From Hyphomicrobiaceae bacterium (lineage in GTDB: Bacteria > Pseudomonadota > Alphaproteobacteria > Rhizobiales > Hyphomicrobiaceae), in contig JANLQJ010000405.1 in NCBI GenBank assembly GCA_031367715.1, positions 19,669 to 83,668 of the forward strand: 64,000 bases of DNA. The letters run 5' to 3'. Numbering within the stretch: the stretch's first letter is position 1; every line of letters starts with the position of its first letter. Below, in pieces: positions 3,214 to 18,788 of the stretch. The notes below the pieces were generated by a model. That model saw only the letters and a list, made by a program, of their open reading frames with translations. It made no database searches and was not told the origin of the DNA. Position numbers and translations under genes: made by a program.

Positions 3214-6200
3214 TCAGATGGTGGCGGCGCGGGGCGTGCCGCGACCGAAACTTGGCGAGATCTGGAAAACCTTCACCGCCACGCTGGTGGGCGGCGTGCC
3301 AAAATCGGCGGTCTGCTGAGCACTCGTGTAGGTCACGGTCGGTGACGCGCTGCTCAGTGTCCGCACGACGCTGGCGCCCGACAGCACGTCGACCTCATAG
3401 GCCTCGTTGTCCTCGGCGAGCGGCACCTCGCGCTGCTCCCAATTGTCGCCGCCGATGCGTGTGCGACGCTTCCAGCCGATGGCAAGATCGCCGTCCGAAC
3501 GCACGCCAACGATATGGCTCGGGCTCAGCGGCCGCCGGCCGATACCCGAGAATCTGAGCGTTTGCGTCGTATAGGAAAGATGCCCGAGCGGACGGTTGGC
3601 CGGCCCAAAGCGCCAGGCCAGCGCCAAGCCGATCTGATCGAGGGTCTCGTCCAGCAATGCGACGCTGGTATCCAGGAACGCAAACGTCGCGCCGGCTGCC
3701 AGCATCGTCGCCATCGCGCCCTCGGTGCCGGCCTGACCGCGCAACAATCGGGTCAGCCGGTAGGTCCGATCAGCGATCAGATCCGCCTTGGCAAATTGCA
3801 GCACCTCCCAAATGCCGGGCGATGTCTCGATGGCGGCGGCATTGGCACCGGCCAGTACCGCGAGATCGCTTTGCGTGGCGAGCGTTCCCGAAGTCAGCTG
3901 CACGGTCAGCTGGTTGGCGCGATCCCAGCGGTTTACGGCACCGGCGGCAAACGCGACCGTTGTCACGCCAAGCGTGGCTTGCGCAGCTAGCATCGCGTTC
4001 AAGCGAAAGTCGATGCCATCGGCCGAGCGATAGACCGCAATGCCGCCGGGCCAGGGTGTTTGCGTTGCCGCGACGCGCGCTGCTATCGGCGACTCATCGC
4101 CCCTGAGCAGCGGCAGATCGAGGAATGCAATCAGTGGGCGTCCAAACGCTGCGGCGGCGGTCGCGGTGGTCTCTCGCTCGACGGCGCTCGAACTGTTGTA
4201 GACCGCACGCTGGATCGACAGCGCATCGATGCCGCGTCCAAGCCCGTCAGCCAGCGACGTGATGCGCAGTTCCAGCGAACGCCCAGGCAGTTGCAGCGTG
4301 ACGATGTCGCTCGGCTCCAGCGCCAGCCAGCTTTCTGGCAGCCGGAATTGCGCATGCTGCCGCGCCGCCCAGGCATCCTGCAGCAGCCGCTCGGCGATCG
4401 CCTGGCCCACCGCTGGCCGCAACACCATCGGAAGCTCGGCGTTGGAAATGCGTGTGCTGCTTGACGCCAGGCGCCGCGATTCGGCAGCCGACGATTGATA
4501 GCCGCGATCGGCATCCAGAAACCCCAGCCGCGCCACTGCAGGCAGCTCGGTCTCCTGGCGTCGCACCAGATGGAATGGCTCGGCCCCCGGCGCGGTTTCG
4601 ACCAGATTATCCGTGTTCAGAACCGCCACCGGGCCGCGCAAACCCCGTTGCGCGAAGCTGATCTTGTCGCCGCTCTCATAGCTGTCGAAGAAATAGGCCA
4701 GCTCCAGCGGCTGGATCGCTGCCCGCGCACTCATCACACGATCGACCACATAGCCATCGACCAAGCCGACCAGCGCGGACGTATCGAAGCTGACAAAGCC
4801 GTTTTCCGTCAGTATACTGCTCACTACGGCATCGAGCGCCACCGCCGCGATGCGGCCGGTAATCCAATGGCCGCGCTGCCAGTTGCCGGCATCGCCCCAG
4901 ACATCGGCGATCTGCGGAAAGGCCGGATAGGGCCGTGCATCCCAGGTGTAGACGAACATCCGCGCCGGATCGACCATGGGCGCGCCATAGAGGCTGGAGA
5001 TCGGATTCGCCGCAGTGCCAGCACCTTGTTTGAAGCGCTCCAGCATCGCCTGCAGAAAGCGGCGCTGCATGAGATCGTCGCGCCCGCCGCCGGAAAAATA
5101 CGGCAGCGCCGACTCGGCACTTTTCACATCGACGAAGGTGTTCGGCTGATTGGCCCCCTTGTCGACCGCCGGGCAGCCAAGCTCGGTGAACCAGAACGGC
5201 TTGCTCTGCGGCACCCAAGCGGTCGGCGTGGACGATTCGACGCCACCCGGGCGATGATAGTGCCGGTTGCCCCACCATGCCGCGATGTCCTTGAAGCGGA
5301 ACACCCAGGGCTTGCCGGCACCGTCGGTAATCGGTGTACGCACTTGCGCGTTGCGGGCCGCGGCACTGGCATAATACCAGTCATAGCCCTCGCCGGCGAC
5401 GATGTTGCCCTTCAGATAGGCAAGGTCATAGGTCGAGCTCGCGCCGGCAACCAGATCGGCGTGGGTGGTGCCATCGCGCCAGTCGGCGAGCGGCCAATAG
5501 ACGTCGATGCCAACGGCGTCGATCGCGGCGCAGGTCCACAGAGCGTCGAGATGGAAATAGACATCGTTCGATCCATCCGCTGGCTGATGACCGAAATACT
5601 CCGACCAATCGGCGGCATACGTTACTTTGGTCCCGGCGCCGAGTACCGTCTTGACGTCGGCGGCCAATTGAACCAGCGCGGCAACGAATGGATAGCTCGA
5701 TGCGCCCGAACGCGCGGTGGTCAGGCCCTTCAACTCAGAGCCGATGACAAATCCGTCGACACCACCGGCCGCCTTGCACAGATGCGCATAGTACAGAACC
5801 ATGCGCCGATAGGACCATTCGGCGGGTCCGGAGTAAGTCACGGTATCGCCGGCGATGGCGAAGTGCGCGACCGCCGCGCTGCCAACGAAGGCGTTGAGCT
5901 GCGTTGCCGCTGTCGCCGTCTTGTCAACCGTGCCGGGCCGTCCGGCGGCCGGATGCACGCTGATGCGCCCGCGCCACGGATAGGCTGCCTGGGCCGCGCC
6001 GCCATATGGGTCCGGCAGCCCATTGCCGGCCGCAATATCCATCAGAATGAACGGGTTGAAGGTGCATTTCAGCCCGCGCGCCGCAAGGTCGCGGATGGCC
6101 GCAATGACGCTGCCATCGGACGGCGTGCCGCCATAGGCGGGCGCTCCATCGGCGCTCGATACCACGATGGCGGAGCTTCGCGTCACGCCGGCGACGCTCC

Positions 6201-7191: not shown

Positions 7192-7629
7192 TCAATCGGC
7201 GACGCCCGGCAGCGCGAAAGCACCGGCGATGCGGCGGCGCCACCAGGGGCCGAGATGCACCTCGCTGACCGGCACGCCCTCCTGGGCGTGGATCATGCGG
7301 CCGTCCTCAACCAGGATCGCGGCATGCTTGGCGACCGCGAAGGTGTTGACGCGGAAGATCAGGACATCGCCCGGCTGCATCGCCACGCTACTGATCTGGC
7401 GCAGATGCCGGCCGGCAGCCGACAGCAGCGCCTCGTTGCCGGTTGCTTCGGCCCAATCGCCAGTATACGGACCGGGCGACTCCGGCTCGTCGGCATAAAT
7501 CTCGCGCCATAAGCCGCGCACCAGCCCGATGCAATCGCAGCCGACTTGCCGCAGGCTGGCGCGGTGATGATAGGGCGTACCCAGCCAGCCGCGCGCAAGT
7601 CGCGTGATATCGGTCCGTGTCACGCTCAT
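7192..7629 (-). CDS. NlpC/P60-family phage cell-wall peptidase (GTA g14-like)
   Basis: GWLGTPYHHRASLRQVGCDCIGLVRGLWRE gives the catalytic Cys context, with a downstream His in HAAIL. 145 aa, in the g14 position. Confidence 0.85.
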   Translation of the reverse strand: MSVTRTDITRLARGWLGTPYHHRASLRQVGCDCIGLVRGLWREIYADEPESPGPYTGDWAEATGNEALLSAAGRHLRQISSVAMQPGDVLIFRVNTFAVAKHAAILVEDGRMIHAQEGVPVSEVHLGPWWRRRIAGAFALPGVAD

Positions 7630-12385: not shown

Positions 12386-13639
12386 TCAGCTCACGCCGAA
12401 CTTCAGCAGCTTGATGGCGTCGAAGTCCTGCACGCCGCCACCGACTCGTTTGGTGGTGTAGAACAAGACATAGGGTTTGGCCGTGAACGGATCACGCAGG
12501 ATGCGCATGCCGACGCGGTCGACCACCAGATAGCCGGCCCGGAAATCGCCGAAGGCGAGCGAGAAACTGTCGGTGGCAAGCACCGGCATGTCCTCGCTCT
12601 CCAAGATCGGGAAGCCCATGAACTGGGGCGCCGCTCCCGGCTGGATCGCGGGCTGCCAGAGGTAGTTGTTGGTGCTGTCCTTCAGTTTACGGATGACCGC
12701 CTGGGTGGTCCGGTTCATGGCAAAACGCGCATTGGGCCGGTACTGAGCTTTCAGCGCATAGACCAGGTCGATCAGCTTGTCGCTGGGGGCGGTGGCGGGC
12801 AGCCCGCCGGCGACGCCGGTGGCCAGGTACCCCATCGAGCCCCAGGCCCAGGAGGCCTGCGCGAGCATCGGATAGGCCAGGAAACCCTTGGGTTTGCTGG
12901 TGCCGTCGCCGATGACGAAGGCGCTGCCTTCCTGTTGCGCAAAGGTGGTCTTCACTTCATCGGCCACCCACTGGTCGATGTTCACGACCGCATCGTCGAG
13001 TAGCGCGGTAGTCGCCGCCGGCATGGCGTAGATCTCGAAAGTGGGAAAGCTCAGATTAGCCAGCGCGGTGTTGCCGGTCTGCGGGCGCGCCGCCGCTTCA
13101 GCCGCCCAGCCAGCCGCGAAACCCGACGTCGAGAACGGCTTGTTGTAGACATTGCTGGAAACCTGCCGAACGGTCGCGGCGGCCCGGATCGGCGAGATGT
13201 CGCGGATGGCGAGCGATACGGCGTGCTCGGTCTCGGGCGGCACCAGATAGCCGCCATCCGAGCTGGAGCCGATCGACAACGCCTTGGTTTCCAGCGCCGA
13301 CAATGCTCCGGACTCGCCTTTTCGCACATAGCTCTCGAAGGCCGCCTTGTGCTGCAACTGCACGCTCGAACGCGGCAGGCCGCCGCCGATCGCCGGGCGG
13401 GACTGTTTGAGCAGCATGCTGTCGATCAACTGCTTGTGCTCGTCCAGCGACTGGTTGATGCGGTTGACCTTGTCCTCGCTGAGGACATCGGCCGAACCAC
13501 GCCGCTCGATCTGATCGATGCGCTGATCGTTCTCGGCCTTGAAGGCCTCGAAGCCGCGCATGAATTTGTCATAGACCACGGCAGCCTCGGGGCTCAGGGC
13601 CTTGGTTTCAGGAGCCGAATTGGGAGTCTCTGCGTTCAT
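12386..13639 (-). CDS. HK97-family major capsid protein (GTA g5-like)
   Basis: Start trimmed to ATG 13639, giving an ATGA overlap with the protease stop. N-terminal coiled delta-like region (FEAFKAENDQRIDQIERRG), then DGGYLVPPE. 417 aa. Confidence 0.9.
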   Translation of the reverse strand: MNAETPNSAPETKALSPEAAVVYDKFMRGFEAFKAENDQRIDQIERRGSADVLSEDKVNRINQSLDEHKQLIDSMLLKQSRPAIGGGLPRSSVQLQHKAAFESYVRKGESGALSALETKALSIGSSSDGGYLVPPETEHAVSLAIRDISPIRAAATVRQVSSNVYNKPFSTSGFAAGWAAEAAARPQTGNTALANLSFPTFEIYAMPAATTALLDDAVVNIDQWVADEVKTTFAQQEGSAFVIGDGTSKPKGFLAYPMLAQASWAWGSMGYLATGVAGGLPATAPSDKLIDLVYALKAQYRPNARFAMNRTTQAVIRKLKDSTNNYLWQPAIQPGAAPQFMGFPILESEDMPVLATDSFSLAFGDFRAGYLVVDRVGMRILRDPFTAKPYVLFYTTKRVGGGVQDFDAIKLLKFGVS

Positions 13640-14256
13640 CTCGTCCTCGTCTTTCTGTGGGGGGTGCGGGCTAGTTGGTTCAAGCGAAGGGCTGCCTCGC
13701 CGAGGCCCTCCCGGAAGGCGGCATCGTCGGTCGCGGCGCCCGATTTCACGGTCGAGATCAGCGCGCCAGGCTGCATCGGGAAAGTGACGACCGAAATCTC
13801 CCACAGGTCGATTTTCGTCAGCCTGCGGACACCGGAGCGCGCATCGCGCACACCCTTCTCGGTGCGAAAGCCGATCGAAAGCCCTTCCAACGCACCGGCC
13901 TGCATCAGCGACAGCGCCTCGCGAGCGCGCCTGACGTCGAGCAACAGACGCCCACGCACCTTCAGCCCACGGGCATCTTCGCTGAGCTGCTCCCAGATGC
14001 CGATCGGCTCGGCCGGATCGTGCTGGAACAGCATCCTGATGCCGCCGGTCCCGCGCCGGCTGAGCGTTTCGCGGAAGGCGCCGGGCACGACGATGTCGCG
14101 GGCGAGATCCTCAATGTTGAACAGGCTGGCATAGCCTTCGAAGGTGCCTTCGGCATCGACCGCAGTGAGATCGAGACGGGCGCGCTTGAACTCGTTCGGC
14201 ATGGCGGGAGCGGTCATGGGGTGGACCATGTTGGAGATACTCAGTTCGCGTTTCAT
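13636..14256 (-). CDS. HK97-family prohead protease (GTA g4-like)
   Basis: TFEGYASLFNIEDLARDIVVPGAFRETL...MLFQHD...GLSIGF...EISVVTFPMQP. An internal Met (14226 or 14214) could be the true start. Confidence 0.85.
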   Translation of the reverse strand: MKRELSISNMVHPMTAPAMPNEFKRARLDLTAVDAEGTFEGYASLFNIEDLARDIVVPGAFRETLSRRGTGGIRMLFQHDPAEPIGIWEQLSEDARGLKVRGRLLLDVRRAREALSLMQAGALEGLSIGFRTEKGVRDARSGVRRLTKIDLWEISVVTFPMQPGALISTVKSGAATDDAAFREGLGEAALRLNQLARTPHRKTRTR

Positions 14257-14291
14257 GTGTTGGGTCGTGGGTAGTCAGTGAACGCGGCGAC

Positions 14292-14750
14292 TCAGGCTCC
14301 GCCCGCGCCGGCCCCATACCCCGCGGCGGCGCGCTTTTCGTCGTTGGTCAGGAACCCCGCTGCATCGACGCGCGACCACAGCCCGTCCCGCTCGGCCGAC
14401 AGCGCCTCGATGGCGTCGAGATCGGCGCGCAATTCCAGGCCGCCGCCGTAGGCTGCGCCGAGCCAGTTCGACAACGCCTGCAGCGTGCGTGCGGTCAGCG
14501 GCAGCACGGTGTGGCGCCAGAAGGCACGATTGGCCTCTTGATAGTTGCCATGCGTATTGTCGCCGGGGATGCCGAGCAGCATGGGCGGCACGCCGGGCAC
14601 CAGCGCGATGTCGCGCGCTGCCTGGCGCTTGCTCTCGGTGACGTCCATGTCCTTGGGGCTGAGTGACCCATGCTTGGAGATTGGGCGCGCCAGTCGAGCC
14701 CGCCTTCCAGCAGCATCGGTCGGCCGGCGTTGCGGGCTTTAGTGTACAGT
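14292..14750 (-). pseudogene. Orphan, frameshifted copy of the portal gene 3' end (displaced native C-terminus)
   Basis: ORF 14292..14648 (MDVTESKRQAARDIALVPGVPPMLLGIPGDNTHGNYQEANRAFWRH...GYGAGAGGA-stop) parallels the C-terminus of the 437-aa portal. Further 5', ARNAGRPMLLEGGLDWRA continues in another frame, after an extra ~13 nt (around 14668-14682) absent from the full copy. Confidence 0.85.
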
Positions 14751-14754
14751 CCGG

Positions 14755-15057
14755 TCAAGGCTTGTAGCGGAGGCTGCCTGTTGTCTGATGCAGCATCCTG
14801 AGAAACGCAAGCAAGCCGTCCCCATCTGAGAAAGTTATGGTTGCGGGTGTCGTCCACCACCACAATCTCAACTCCTCTGGTGTATGCTTTCCGGTCAGCA
14901 GTTCATTTTCGAGGAACTCCCACACGACTCGCGTGTCTTCGGCGGTTAGCCCGACGAGCGCGAACTGCACCAGTTCGGTGGCCGAACCCGGTTCAAGTCC
15001 CTGGTGTAAATTTCGGCAAAGGCTATTGAATGCCTCTGGCTGCGCAATGCTTGTCAT
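14755..15057 (-). CDS. Putative CdiI-like immunity protein
   Basis: 100 aa. The ATG abuts the toxin stop (TAAATG). FNSLCRNLHQ...TAEDTRVVWEFLENELLTGKHTPEELRLWWW...DGDGLLAFLRML resembles CdiI-type immunity proteins paired with RNase-A-like CdiA-CT toxins (recall). Lies in AT-richer DNA. Confidence 0.55.
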   Translation of the reverse strand: MTSIAQPEAFNSLCRNLHQGLEPGSATELVQFALVGLTAEDTRVVWEFLENELLTGKHTPEELRLWWWTTPATITFSDGDGLLAFLRMLHQTTGSLRYKP

Positions 15058-15480
15058 TTAGTCCTCATTTAGCGGGAACGCGGAAACAACGAAGTATCCT
15101 TTCTTGGAGGTGGGGCTTCGCCGCAAGGACACCATCACACTATATGTATCCCGCATAACTGGTTGAGCTTGATCGTCAGCGACATACGCTTCGTAACCGG
15201 TGCGGCTTCGAAACTTCAGAAACAAATTCTGATACGGCAGCGCGTGCAACAATCCTCCGGCCACAAAGGCGGCCACTTTGTCTTGATTCGCCGCAATGGT
15301 TGCGTTGGTCAACTTGGCAGCCGCTTCCATCGACGGAAACGATCCCGCTCTCTTCTCACCAATTACGCCAATGAGAGGAATATTGACTCGATTTCCCAAT
15401 AGCCTCGCCTTGAGGTATTGAGGTGGCTTGGCGACGTGCCGTGCGATTGTATGCCCACCCAAACCCTCCTCCTCGACCAA
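15058..15480 (-). CDS. Putative RNase-A-like CdiA-CT-type toxin domain, in frame with the portal gene
   Basis: (TTG)VEEEGLGGHTIARHVAKPPQYLKARL...AGSFPSMEAAAKLTNATIAANQDKVAAFV...KGYFVVSAFPLNED. The N-terminal GGHTxxRHV and C-terminal hhSAFP fit my memory of Pfam RNAse_A_bac (PF18431). It shares the portal reading frame (16824-15480=1344), separated from it by one TAA plus 10 sense codons. Confidence 0.55.
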   Translation of the reverse strand: MVEEEGLGGHTIARHVAKPPQYLKARLLGNRVNIPLIGVIGEKRAGSFPSMEAAAKLTNATIAANQDKVAAFVAGGLLHALPYQNLFLKFRSRTGYEAYVADDQAQPVMRDTYSVMVSLRRSPTSKKGYFVVSAFPLNED

Positions 15481-15510
15481 GTCAATGGGATAACCTAGGT
15501 TGCCTTGGGA

Positions 15511-16824
15511 TTAAATGGATTGGAGGGTGCCCATGCCACCTGAACCGCTCGCGCCGCCATCCGTCCACTCCCCGCCACCGGGTTGCCCCTTGGGGAGCCT
15601 TGGTTGGCCGGGGTTGAAGAGCTTTACTCGAACACCACTACCAGCCCCATACCCCACCGCCGCGCGCTTCTCGTCGTCCGTCAGGAACCCCGCCGCGCCG
15701 ACCCTTGCCCACAGCCCGTCGCGCTCGGTCGACAGCGCTTCCACCCCATCCAAATCCACGCGCAGCTCCAGCCCGCCGCCATAAGCCGCGCCCAGCCAGG
15801 CCGACAGCGCCTGCAGGGTGCGTCCCGTCAGCGGCAGGATGGTGTGGCGCCAGAAGGCGCGGTTCGCCTCCTGATAGTTTGCATGCGTATTGTCGCCGGG
15901 GATGCCGAGCAGCATGGGCGGCACGCCGAGCGCCAGCGCGATGTCGCGCGCTGCCTGGCGCTTGCTCTCGGTGAAGTCCATGTCCTTGGGGCTGAGTGAC
16001 ATGGCGCGCCAGTCGAGCCCGCCTTCCAGCAGCATCGGCCGGCCGGCGTTCTTGGCGCCCTGGAAGGTGCTCTCCAGTTCCGATTTCAGTCGCGCATACT
16101 GTTCCGCCGTCAGCTGACGATCCGCCGCAGTATAGACCAGCGCGCCCGAGGGTAGAGCGCTATTGTCCAGCATCGCCTTGTTCCAGGCGCTGGCGGCGTT
16201 GTGGATGTCGATGGCGGTGGACGCGGCCTCGATCGGCGACAGGCCGTAATAGTCATTGGTTGGATGAAACAGCGCCTGGTGCAGAATCGGCCGCACACCG
16301 GGCACGGCATCGCCGCTGTAGCTGACCTTATGGCCGTTCACGGTGTAATCGTAGGAAGCCGGCCAGCCATCTGTTCCTGGAATAATCGAGATACGGTCCG
16401 GACGCAGCACATACAGTTCGCGCAAGGTCGAGCCGGTCGCGACGGCCTCCAGGTAGGCATTGCCTGAAACCAGCAGGTAACTGTACCACGCCTCCAGCAG
16501 TTCGGCGCGCGATTGGGTGGGATTGGGCACGCGCAACAGATCGAGCAATGGGTGATCTGTGATCTCTTGATCTCCGGCATAGAGACAGAACGCCACCGAG
16601 GCGGCGGCCTCGGCGATCATCCGCACGCTGCGGTAGACCACCGGGTTCTGCATGAAGCCTTCGCGCGCAAAGGCGCCGTAGTCGCGCGGGCTCCACACCG
16701 GCTGGCGCTGGTACTGCAGCGCGATCAGCGGCGCGGCGGCGCTGGTCTTGGCTTCGGGCGCGGCGATCGGGGCATAGCGGGAGAGGCCGGCGTAGCGCGC
16801 CAGCGCCGAGAGGATTGGGGACAT
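15511..16824 (-). CDS. HK97-family portal protein (GTA g3-like) with a ~40-aa C-terminal extension
   Basis: 437 aa with portal-typical NAGRPMLLEGGLDW and PPMLLGIPGDNTH. Past the native end seen in the orphan copy, it continues VRVKLFNPGQPRLPKGQPGGGEWTDGGASGSGGMGTLQSI. Confidence 0.9.
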   Translation of the reverse strand: MSPILSALARYAGLSRYAPIAAPEAKTSAAAPLIALQYQRQPVWSPRDYGAFAREGFMQNPVVYRSVRMIAEAAASVAFCLYAGDQEITDHPLLDLLRVPNPTQSRAELLEAWYSYLLVSGNAYLEAVATGSTLRELYVLRPDRISIIPGTDGWPASYDYTVNGHKVSYSGDAVPGVRPILHQALFHPTNDYYGLSPIEAASTAIDIHNAASAWNKAMLDNSALPSGALVYTAADRQLTAEQYARLKSELESTFQGAKNAGRPMLLEGGLDWRAMSLSPKDMDFTESKRQAARDIALALGVPPMLLGIPGDNTHANYQEANRAFWRHTILPLTGRTLQALSAWLGAAYGGGLELRVDLDGVEALSTERDGLWARVGAAGFLTDDEKRAAVGYGAGSGVRVKLFNPGQPRLPKGQPGGGEWTDGGASGSGGMGTLQSI

Positions 16825-16846: not shown

Positions 16847-18286
16847 TCAGAGGGACCGGATCTTCGGCTCGCCAGATTTCGTCAGCATAAGATCGGTCAG
16901 GGCCCAGACCAGCGCATCCAGGCGATCAGGGCTGCGGCCGCCCGACAGGCCCGCCGGGCCGAAATCACACATCTGATCTTCCAGCGCTGCAAACGTTCCC
17001 ACATGGCTCACCATTCCTCGTTCGTACAATGCCGCCACCGGCTCGGCGCGGATCCATTTGCCGCGCGTCGCACGGACTTTCCGTATCGGGACATCCTGAT
17101 CGATCTGGCGGATCACGCCTTCCACCAGATCACCGCCCTGGTTCACCTCGGCGACGATGCGGTCGGCTTCGAACTCGGCCAGCGCCGACACCGCCGCCTT
17201 GGCCCACACCAGCGGCGCGTGGCCCGCGATGGTGCGGTCGGCCAGCACATAGCCACGCCCGCCGGCATCCACACCGGCCACCACGATGCCACAGGCGTCG
17301 GCCTTGGCACCGCTGGTCACTGGCGGATCGACCGCGACCACGATGCGTTTCAGGGCCGGCAACTCGGCGATCCGCACCCGCTCGATATCGGTCCGGCGCC
17401 ACAGCGCGTCGGCGCGATCCTCGACGATTTCGCCGTCCAGCTCCTGGCGGCCGAGCGTGCTCGCCCCGTAGCGGGCGCGCATCTGCTCGATGAAGCCGGG
17501 CGCAAGGTTGGCGAAGTTATCGAGCGTGCGCGAGCGGCTGACCGCCGTTGCCGCATCCGCCAGCAACCGCTTCAACAGCGCGATCGGGCGCGGCGTGGTG
17601 GTCACCACCTGGCGCGGACGTTGCCCGAGCCGCAGCGCGAACTGCAGCATGTCCCAGGTTTTGTCCGCATAGCGCCATTTGGCCAGCTCGTCGCACCAGG
17701 CAGCGCCAAACTGCGGCCCGCGCAGCCCGTCCGGTTCCTCGGCCGAGAACAGCTGCGCGATAGCGCCGTTGGACCAGGTTAGTTGCCGTTTCGATGCTTC
17801 GTATACGGGGCGTTCGTGCGGCGCATGTACCGCGAGCAATCCCGACACGCCCTCGACCATGACCGCGCGCACCTCCGCCATGGTCTCGCCGATCAGCGCG
17901 ATGCGCGCAATCGCGGTATTGGCCAGCGGTTCGAGCCCGAGCGCCTGCGCCCTGACCCATTCGGCGCCGGCGCGGGTTTTTCCCGAGCCGCGTCCGCCGA
18001 GCACCAGCCAGGTGCGCCAGGTGTCGGTCGCGCCAGAGTCCTGGTCGCCGCCCGGCGGCTCTGCGGCAGGGAACTGCTCGCCGGCAGCCGGTTCGGCTGC
18101 AAGAGCGCGTGCAATCTCCCTGGGGAGCTGATCGAGTCTTGCCCAGCTGATCCAGTCATGCCACAGGCGGGCTACCCGCGCCGCAGGCAGGCCGCCAATG
18201 AACTCCTCACTGGTGCCGTCGCGCACCGAGGCTTGCAATCCGATCCGCAAGTTCCTGGCGCCAGTCAGCGACATTGTCGTCTCCAT
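16847..18286 (-). CDS. Terminase large subunit (GTA g2-like)
   Basis: Walker A in WLVLGGRGSGKTRAGAEWV. 479 aa, directly upstream of the portal gene. Start (18286 or 18274) overlaps the g1 3' end by about 70-80 nt. Confidence 0.85.
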   Translation of the reverse strand: METTMSLTGARNLRIGLQASVRDGTSEEFIGGLPAARVARLWHDWISWARLDQLPREIARALAAEPAAGEQFPAAEPPGGDQDSGATDTWRTWLVLGGRGSGKTRAGAEWVRAQALGLEPLANTAIARIALIGETMAEVRAVMVEGVSGLLAVHAPHERPVYEASKRQLTWSNGAIAQLFSAEEPDGLRGPQFGAAWCDELAKWRYADKTWDMLQFALRLGQRPRQVVTTTPRPIALLKRLLADAATAVSRSRTLDNFANLAPGFIEQMRARYGASTLGRQELDGEIVEDRADALWRRTDIERVRIAELPALKRIVVAVDPPVTSGAKADACGIVVAGVDAGGRGYVLADRTIAGHAPLVWAKAAVSALAEFEADRIVAEVNQGGDLVEGVIRQIDQDVPIRKVRATRGKWIRAEPVAALYERGMVSHVGTFAALEDQMCDFGPAGLSGGRSPDRLDALVWALTDLMLTKSGEPKIRSL

Positions 18287-18683
18287 ACGGTGAAGTGGTG
18301 GTGCCGGCCGGGGTGTCGGTAGACCCGGGCATCACCTTCTCGCGCCAGGCCGCTTCTTTGGCGTCGAGCTTGTCGAACGTGGTCAGCAGCGAAGCGAAGG
18401 CGCGCGTGCTGCGTTCGTCGTCGGTGGGTTTGGCTTCGGGATCTTCCATGCGGGTCTCTAGTTGCTTGAGCTTGGCGACGATGATCCGGCGCAACACCGC
18501 CCGCTCCGAGACGGCCCCTTCGAGCCGCAGCGAAGCGTGTGGGGGCCAGTTGAATTTCTGGGCGCGCAGATAGAGCGTGTTGCGGTTGATCTCGCATTGG
18601 CTGGCGATCTCGGCGATGCTGAACTCGCCTTCGAAATACAGGCGTTCGGCCTTCGCCCAGGTCGATGGGCGGATGGTGCGCAT
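18207..18683 (-). CDS. Small terminase-like / HTH protein (GTA g1-like)
   Basis: Start trimmed to ATG 18683 (GGGAG upstream). MRTIRPSTWAKAERLYFEGEFSIAEIASQCEINRNTLYLRAQKFNW is HTH-like. First gene of the cluster. Confidence 0.65.
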   Translation of the reverse strand: MRTIRPSTWAKAERLYFEGEFSIAEIASQCEINRNTLYLRAQKFNWPPHASLRLEGAVSERAVLRRIIVAKLKQLETRMEDPEAKPTDDERSTRAFASLLTTFDKLDAKEAAWREKVMPGSTDTPAGTTTSPYGDDNVADWRQELADRIASLGARRHQ

Positions 18684-18788
18684 GGGGGTAGGCTCCCGAA
18701 GGATTTGGGAAAGGGGATAGGGAACGGGGAACAGGTAATGACCCCGCGGCTTCTGGCTCACTTTGGTGATGGGACAAAAAGACACCAT

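Follow-up and report, generated by a model that had tools for sequence, protein, structure and literature searches.

A probably displaced portal gene end behind a toxin/immunity cassette in an RcGTA-type cluster of a Hyphomicrobiaceae bacterium

Introduction

In CDI and Rhs systems, the term orphan denotes a piece of the main gene's conserved 3' region that has no start of its own and lies downstream of the main toxin and immunity genes in the same orientation (PMC4927057; PMC3967940). Such orphans are explained as fossils of incoming CT/immunity modules that were integrated by homology (Ruhe et al. 2016, PMC4927057; Koskiniemi et al. 2014, PMC3967940). At rhs of Salmonella, the main gene and the orphan share a recombining tract of 522 bp with 95% identity, and relatives of CDI/Rhs carriers hold arrays of modules with different toxins (PMC4927057; PMC3967940). 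An addiction or surveillance logic exists for CDI (PMC4927057), and the activation of Rhs orphans by recombination has been described (PMC3967940). In temperate phages, the MuF toxins are variable C-terminal toxins with immunity genes, carried on a head-internal, portal-associated protein (Zhang et al. 2012, PMC3482391; Jamet et al. 2017, PMC5576092). The MuF carrier is encoded in the packaging module, and delivery together with the capsid contents has been proposed (PMC3482391; PMC5576092).

Orphan modules and the displacement model are textbook knowledge for CDI/Rhs, and head-internal toxin carriers are known for MuF. GTAs, for their part, are mostly presented as domesticated phages through which DNA passes to kin. 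A full-text search of a limited collection of papers returned none on portal-toxin fusions, their orphans or GTA toxin cargo, and the available parts of the two MuF papers (PMC3482391, PMC5576092) hold no description of direct portal-toxin fusions.

Here we analyse a window, that is, the whole stretch of 64,000 nucleotides from contig JANLQJ010000405.1 of a Hyphomicrobiaceae bacterium, in which a second copy of the portal gene 3' end lies behind a toxin/immunity cassette. Like its CDI/Rhs counterparts, this orphan is a 3' fragment in the same orientation, downstream of a toxin and an immunity gene, with a near-identical tract in the main copy and with relatives that carry arrays. It differs from them in its carrier, which is a GTA portal, an essential structural protein of a DNA-packaging particle, and not a secreted filament or a T6SS cargo. 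It also differs in being what is probably the pre-toxin native end with its own stop and with neither toxin nor immunity gene, in having no transposase or integrase genes beside it, and in its homologous tract, which at 119-166 nt is much shorter. The cassette resembles MuF in combining a C-terminal toxin and an adjacent immunity gene on a carrier of the phage head/portal type. Unlike MuF, however, the carrier is the portal itself (PF04860 only, with no MuF/SPP1 gp7 domain), and the locus is a chromosomal RcGTA-type cluster and not a prophage.

Results and discussion

The portal locus in its genomic setting

The minus strand of the window carries a complete head-tail cluster of the RcGTA type, whose gene order matches RcGTA g1-g15 with GTA-specific families. 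The cluster contains a small terminase-like gene (Terminase_5-like, 18207-18788), TerL (16847-18286), the portal gene, the prohead protease of family S78 (13636-14256; PF04586, E 5e-36; TIGR01543) and the capsid gene (12386-13804). After the capsid gene come Phage_connect_1 (adaptor), Phage_HCP (head completion), Tail_completion_gp17 and Phage_tail_2 (tube), then Phage_TAC_11 (GTA-gp10), a short tape-measure ORF of 199 aa and DUF2460, and lastly the hub gene (Gp84_N+BR0599), NlpC/P60 and a 1311-aa protein with GTA_TIM+Phage-tail_3+Rcc01698_C. Upstream of the cluster, a CxxCxxCC gene is common to the window and to the related loci L005 and L006, and beyond it a PBP1A gene is found in the window and in L005; the upstream gene context of L159 differs from that of these three. 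Because these upstream neighbours are kept in relatives, the arrangement is taken as indicating a cluster that was probably inherited vertically at a conserved chromosomal position, rather than a mobile prophage. The 5.68-Mb assembly, a MAG of 465 contigs with 5.7% contamination, contains no portal sequences other than the main copy and the orphan.

The working portal gene (15511..16824, minus strand) encodes 437 aa, consisting of an HK97/RcGTA-type core (PF04860, E 5e-89; TIGR01537) and a 40-aa linker (KLFNPGQPRLPKGQPGGGEWT...), which is closed by an in-frame TAA at 15511-15513. It is a homolog of the RcGTA portal Rcc01684 (PDB 6TBA/6TE8; E 6e-129), to which it aligns over its whole length (residues 16-392 to residues 14-390). 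Between the portal core and the protease lie the linker with its TAA, an RNase_A_bac domain, a 100-aa gene and the orphan segment. The RNase_A_bac toxin domain (CdiA-CT RNase A type; 15058..15510, minus strand; PF18431, E 5e-13) is in the portal frame but behind the TAA. The 100-aa gene (14755..15057, minus strand), whose ATG directly follows the toxin stop, is a candidate immunity gene; a Pfam search with it gave no match. The toxin-immunity stretch has a GC content of about 52%, against about 66% in its flanks, which argues for a foreign origin of the cassette. Judged by sequence, the portal carries a putative C-terminal toxin with a candidate immunity gene, and this pair is polymorphic among close relatives, as it is in CDI/Rhs systems.

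The same cassette type occurs in L005, where it belongs to an intact portal-toxin fusion of 593 aa (P0006). Over window 14755-15510 and L005 5330-6082, the toxins are 85% identical, while the candidate immunity protein is only 54% identical to the product of the 100-aa gene at the same position in L005.

Anatomy of the orphan

The preliminary description of this DNA had reported a direct repeat of the portal 3' end around the cassette, with the partner of the orphan at 15644-16060. Pairwise alignment shows the repeat to be real and the partner close to that position: on the minus strand, 14731-14308 (orphan) repeats portal 16050-15641, and the arm in the main copy (15641..16050, minus strand) spans portal codons 259-395 or thereabouts. 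The orphan has the same orientation as the main gene, begins at about codon 260 of 395 and lacks the 5' part.

At its 5' edge, 23 nt after the immunity stop, stands a portal stub of 47 nt (NAGRPMLLEGGLDWRA; 14685..14731, minus strand), which matches 16004-16050 with one synonymous mismatch. Since this stretch is 92-100% conserved even between species, the sequence of the stub does not tell where it came from. The stub is followed by a 17-nt filler (CAATCTCCAAGCATGGG; 14668..14684, minus strand) in place of the ATG of the main copy. The filler adds a net 14 nt and shifts the orphan frame, and no copy of it was found elsewhere in the window, in the genome or in 160 fetched loci. From there on, orphan 14667-14308 aligns with 16000-15641 over 360 nt with 50 mismatches and no gaps. 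The proximal part, tract A (14549..14667, minus strand, 119 nt), is 97.5% identical to 15882-16000 and includes perfect runs of 25, 42 and 47 nt. The distal part, tract B, together with a native-type end (14292..14548, minus strand; ...GYGAGAGGA, with TGA at 14292-14294), is 80.5% identical to 15641-15881. An earlier count by eye of about ten differences in 14505-14667 was close to the 11 that we counted. The earlier figure of some 13 extra nucleotides that break the frame was likewise near the measured net 14 nt and right about the frame, but they may be an old junction and not an insertion, as the orphan of L006, the closest relative, starts at the same codon with GGG for ATG.

The orphan ends as the native portal does, extended by four codons, and its TGA precedes the start of the protease ORF (14256) by 35 nt. 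In the toxin-less relatives L010, L016, L087, L088, L090 and L096, the distance from portal stop to protease is 17-38 nt, and because the spacing is alike, the junction between orphan and protease appears to be the native one. With its frame broken by the filler, and with no promoter-like site or well-spaced SD found, the orphan is without translation signals of its own; it has no CT toxin or immunity gene of its own either. An ORF of 118 aa within it (14292-14648) matches Phage_portal positions 214-320 of 321 (E 2e-21).

Mosaic identity between the two copies

Identity between the copies changes in one step at 14549/15882, from 4 differences in 166 nt upstream to 47 in 241 nt downstream (Fisher p = 4e-8). 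The maximum chi-square for this step was 25.8, which was reached in none of 200 permutations. In a codon analysis by the Nei-Gojobori method, the proximal 39 codons showed no synonymous and three non-synonymous differences, and the distal 81 codons showed 32 and 16, respectively, giving a dS of 0.79 and a dN/dS of 0.12. Counted by sites, 0 of 29 synonymous sites had changed in the proximal part versus 32 of 65 in the distal part (p = 3e-7). Tract A is not intrinsically invariant, because over the same codons its dS against L006, L007 and L005 is 0.22, 0.61 and 2.2. All three proximal amino-acid changes (F>V, A>V and L>P, the last in a conserved motif) are derived in the orphan.

This pattern points to a proximal tract that was copied between the two sites within the lineage and has since changed in the orphan only. 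The distal tracts, whose divergence is comparable to that between this genome and its genus-level relatives, are two alleles, each of which evolved as a working portal before both ended up in a single genome, since a dN/dS of 0.12 at a dS of 0.79 speaks for purifying selection on both sides. The mosaic identity and the stronger divergence of the distal part, both noted in the preliminary description, are thus confirmed, with a step sharper than it had been drawn. Its attribution of the distal divergence to decay is contradicted by the same dS and dN/dS, which fit a separate allele under purifying selection. Real decay is slight and amounts to no more than three amino-acid changes specific to the orphan plus the 17-nt filler.

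Orphans in related loci

For comparison, loci were retrieved from species genomes (80) and from metagenomes (72), and the portal, extra portal fragments and the protease were placed in each by tblastn. Once obvious duplicates had been removed, the portal-to-protease interval was complete in 88 loci, which are related and hence non-independent. An interval of at least 800 nt was taken as the threshold for an insert, and stubs as short as 47 nt escape detection in this survey. Orphan portal 3' fragments were found in 23 of the 41 loci with an interval of at least 800 nt and in 0 of the 47 with a shorter one, so that among these 88 related loci the orphans are confined to those with an inserted cassette, as in CDI/Rhs systems.

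Among the 120 best portal homologs, many are fusions of 550-690 aa to differing C-terminal domains. The fused toxin domains include PF18431 (RNase_A_bac), PF18451 (CdiA tRNase), PF14414+PF12639 (WHH + colicin DNase) and several without a Pfam name. Several loci, including those of isolates, hold arrays of two to four orphans. Three are present on the complete chromosome of Methylocystis sp. JAN1 (L085), two each in M. rosea SV97 (L040) and M. silviterrae (L051), and four in a Methylocystaceae MAG (L073); Alsobacter metallidurans (L024) has two matched pieces, perhaps from one split orphan. Many orphans of relatives run in frame into C-terminal domains of their own, 100-300 residues long (e.g. 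L051, L041, L021 and L040). The orphan nearest to the protease is often truncated, or it stops no more than a few codons away from where the native portal ends (L056, L062, L082, L086), and truncation points vary widely.

The clearest and most direct example of a module that appears to have been displaced from main to orphan position comes from M. rosea and M. silviterrae. L040 6852-8548, comprising the main portal end, the RNase_A_bac toxin, the immunity gene and the first part of the orphan that follows, is collinear with L051 8892-10584 at 95.5% identity, and in L051 this RNase block of the L040 type stands in orphan position behind a different main cassette. Within a genome, orphan and main copy are typically 90-98% identical. 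High identity at the 5' end that falls toward the 3' end, as in the window, is also seen in the orphans of L014, L056, L085, L101 and L102.

The survey also contains twelve loci with a toxin-less portal, a portal-to-protease interval of 0.9-4 kb and no orphan fragment (L007, L011, L035, L039, L044, L047, L049, L070, L071, L072, L122, L127).

The closest clade

The nearest relatives of the window hold different states of the same interval. In L159, a 'PGWHD' toxin forms the C-terminal part of a portal fusion; a small gene and a 114-aa gene come next, and there is no orphan. In L006 and L160, the 'PGWHD' toxin is out of the portal frame and is followed by a 163-aa immunity-like gene (L006 5779-6270) and then by an orphan, which begins at codon 276, passes through the linker, takes in the initial ~35 residues of an RNase-A-type toxin and ends in a fusion to the 114-aa gene. 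In L005, the RNase cassette is in main position, and behind it stand portal pieces of about codons 176-187 and 235-306, joined to a 3' remnant of the 163-aa gene. The window has the order RNase cassette, stub, filler and an orphan from codon 276 to the native stop. The L006 orphan starts at the exact codon at which the window orphan resumes after the filler, and both carry GGG at a position where all main copies have ATG. A right-hand junction common to the window and L005, which share the cassette type, was not found; since the sequences after the immunity stop are unrelated, the two events were independent or were followed by different deletions.

Two further features of this clade may be recorded. 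Between the orphan piece and the protease, L005 6356-6660 is a 3' remnant (ISINTNYFKG...RAQSN*) of the 163-aa gene of the L006 type, which by its sequence is the apparent fossil of an earlier cassette. The conserved gene of ~114 aa (MPRIPPTPALFDQMF...) stands directly upstream of the protease (L159 6311-6655) and forms an in-frame fusion to a decayed orphan in L006 (6315-7364); it may be an orphan immunity gene.

Origin of the orphan

We consider it probable that the segment is the displaced native end of a toxin-less portal gene, and that its proximal tract was copied between the two sites at the same time or later. Under this explanation, foreign DNA carrying the 3' part of another lineage's portal, a linker, the RNase toxin and the immunity gene would have recombined into the resident portal gene. 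The left crossover would lie inside the portal at about codon 315 (15882), with the working gene derived from the donor beyond it. The resident end would have come to lie downstream of the cassette, with its native stop and the spacer to the protease still attached. At the 5' edge of the orphan, 166 nt would then be a copy of working-gene sequence, duplicated at integration or by later gene conversion. Afterwards the orphan would have drifted as a start-less pseudogene and acquired its three amino-acid changes and the frame-breaking filler. Displacement of the C-terminal end by recombination, as at cdiA and rhs loci, had already been proposed for this segment, and it remains the best reading, backed by the locus survey and by the L040/L051 example.

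An extra step is needed in this scheme, because a plain double crossover of a linear fragment would replace the old end and not duplicate the target. Duplicating routes are an ends-in or gap-repair integration, with the gap filled from the chromosome, or a template switch to the chromosome. In yeast integrative transformation, linear DNA is known to integrate ends-in (by gap repair) with duplication of the target; the insert comes to lie between two copies of the target, which are identical in the region between the invading ends because the chromosome serves as the template there. Tract A with its dS of 0 beside the diverged tract B resembles this outcome, as a mechanistic analogy only, for later gene conversion gives an equal picture. 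If conversion covered both the stub and tract A, the filler between them should have been erased, so the filler would be younger or the stub would have a separate history.

The identity of the resident allele, the integration mechanism and the order of events are points that we infer. The orphan is taken as the resident allele only because it runs unbroken into the native stop and the protease spacer, as the main distal tract does into the foreign cassette. In a search for the resident or donor allele, the best non-self match of the orphan distal tract among 300 family genomes was 82% (81% to its own main copy), and a metagenome scan yielded nothing closer. Both B tracts are about equally distant from every relative found (dS 0.5-0.8), and when TerL and portal were compared with six relatives in sliding windows, the affinity did not switch at 15882.

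The orphan start point shared with L006 raises the possibility, which we regard as unlikely, that two nested events are recorded here. An old orphan would begin at codon 276 (GGG TCA CTC...), and the stub and filler would be what is left of a second, later displacement after the deletion of its portal end, toxin and immunity genes, the 14-nt "insertion" being the junction; this refines displacement and does not exclude it. The GGG in both orphans against ATG in all main copies fits such a history, as does a filler with no source in the genome or the fetched loci, and internal deletions of this kind are seen in L005 (portal pieces and immunity remnant) and L006 (orphan fused to the 114-aa gene). 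However, upstream of the common start the window and L006 are unrelated, with ~3 of 14 positions matching by eye, and chance could account for one shared position and two shared bases. The filler can also be interpreted as an incomplete, degenerate copy of CCCCAAGGACATGGAC close by, in which case it would have been inserted by local slippage.

Two explanations that dispense with displacement were rejected. A tandem duplication of the portal 3' end in situ, with the cassette later inserted between the copies and the silent copy diverging, would explain two copies in the same orientation and an identical proximal tract with no foreign allele involved. A dead copy should, however, show a dN/dS near 1 and uniform divergence, against the observed dS of 0 in tract A and the dS of 0.79 with dN/dS 0.12 in tract B; this dS equals that between relatives at the level of genera, and the low-GC cassette points to import, which leaves such a duplication highly improbable. 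We give as little credence to an assembly chimera, in which contigs of a cassette-bearing and a toxin-less strain were joined in a MAG whose fragmentation and contamination would make this conceivable. The longest exact matches between the copies are only 47, 42, 35 and 25 nt, and a false join is possible only inside these; it would give a single hybrid gene and not two copies around a cassette. The junction of immunity gene, 23 nt and portal stub must exist on a real molecule in any case, and an equal architecture is found in isolate genomes (the complete JAN1 chromosome L085, L040 and L024). The copies are also 87% identical with differing flanks, in agreement with the earlier judgement that an assembly duplication is unlikely.

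If displacement is the right reading, the displaced native end in the window and the cassette-linked orphans, sometimes in arrays, across Hyphomicrobiales suggest that a GTA portal gene evolves by displacement of the CDI/Rhs kind. The scars would be a readable record of successive cassette arrivals, and they lend support to the view that, in some GTA particles, the portal bears exchangeable protein toxins within the head. Culturable carriers in which this could be tested are Methylocystis and Alsobacter. The value of the single orphan in the window lies in what it says about mechanism and history.

Excision and possible function of the orphan

The preliminary description had suggested that the repeats could excise the cassette and regenerate a toxin-less portal. 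In principle this holds: an in-silico crossover in the 47-nt perfect tract, downstream of the filler, gives an open toxin-less portal of 399 aa (the RcGTA portal has 396 aa); if the crossover is placed in the stub, the product is frameshifted. Excision that restores a toxin-less portal appears possible in principle, over only 119 nt of homology. Two further suggestions found no support. An addiction or kin-discrimination logic is at odds with the TAA that cuts the toxin off the portal in this strain. Translation of the 118-aa remnant would have to start at an ATG that is a conserved internal Met of the portal, with AAGGA only 1 nt before it; no promoter-like sites were found in 13900-15700, and terminator-like sites there are no more frequent than expected by chance.

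The orphan could nevertheless be kept for a function, as translational context for the protease, as a partner in reversible RecA-mediated excision, or as a source of the 118-aa portal fragment. The intact native stop and 35-nt protease spacer, the open product of a crossover in the 47-nt tract, and the recombination of Rhs orphans with the main gene in culture (PMC3967940) would all agree with this. We nonetheless hold it to be improbable in view of the orphan-specific amino-acid changes, one of them an L>P in a conserved motif, the broken frame, the ill-spaced AAGGA at the sole candidate start with no promoter-like site, the shortness of the usable homology (119 nt), and the truncation of relatives' orphans at many points, as would be expected of relics. 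This orphan is probably a relic with no function of its own.

With about the same low expectation, one may consider that the shared tract of 119-166 nt has been kept similar by recurrent conversion and acts as a recombination switch, in which a RecA crossover would remove toxin and immunity gene and bring back a native portal of 399 aa, and the converse event would re-arm the portal. GTA-producing populations would then be a mix of armed and unarmed producers. A cassette of ~1.4 kb with flanking portal homology fits a GTA-sized DNA fragment, so that GTAs could spread their own toxin tips.

The linker and its frame breaks

In the window (15514-15640) and in relatives, the linker carries the motif (K/S)(L/F)FNPxQPRxPxG...GG(Q/R/E)W(T/S), followed by a Gly-rich stretch. 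This motif joins the portal core to every toxin type and recurs in orphans that have a C-terminal domain of their own; it may act as a signal for processing or packaging. The frame that runs from portal through linker to toxin is broken in four of the six closest loci, each time at the KLFNPxQPR linker or close to it. In the window, the break is the TAA at 15511-15513; L006 has a frameshift beside a G-run (about 5185-5200), with the toxin continuing in another frame to 5789; and truncations near the linker are found in L160 (about 5200-5230) and in L007 (about 7210-7257), where another frame reads QPRVPAGNLDGGRWT. These breaks could be assembly indels, recurrent inactivation, or a recoding that limits the number of toxin-bearing portal subunits.
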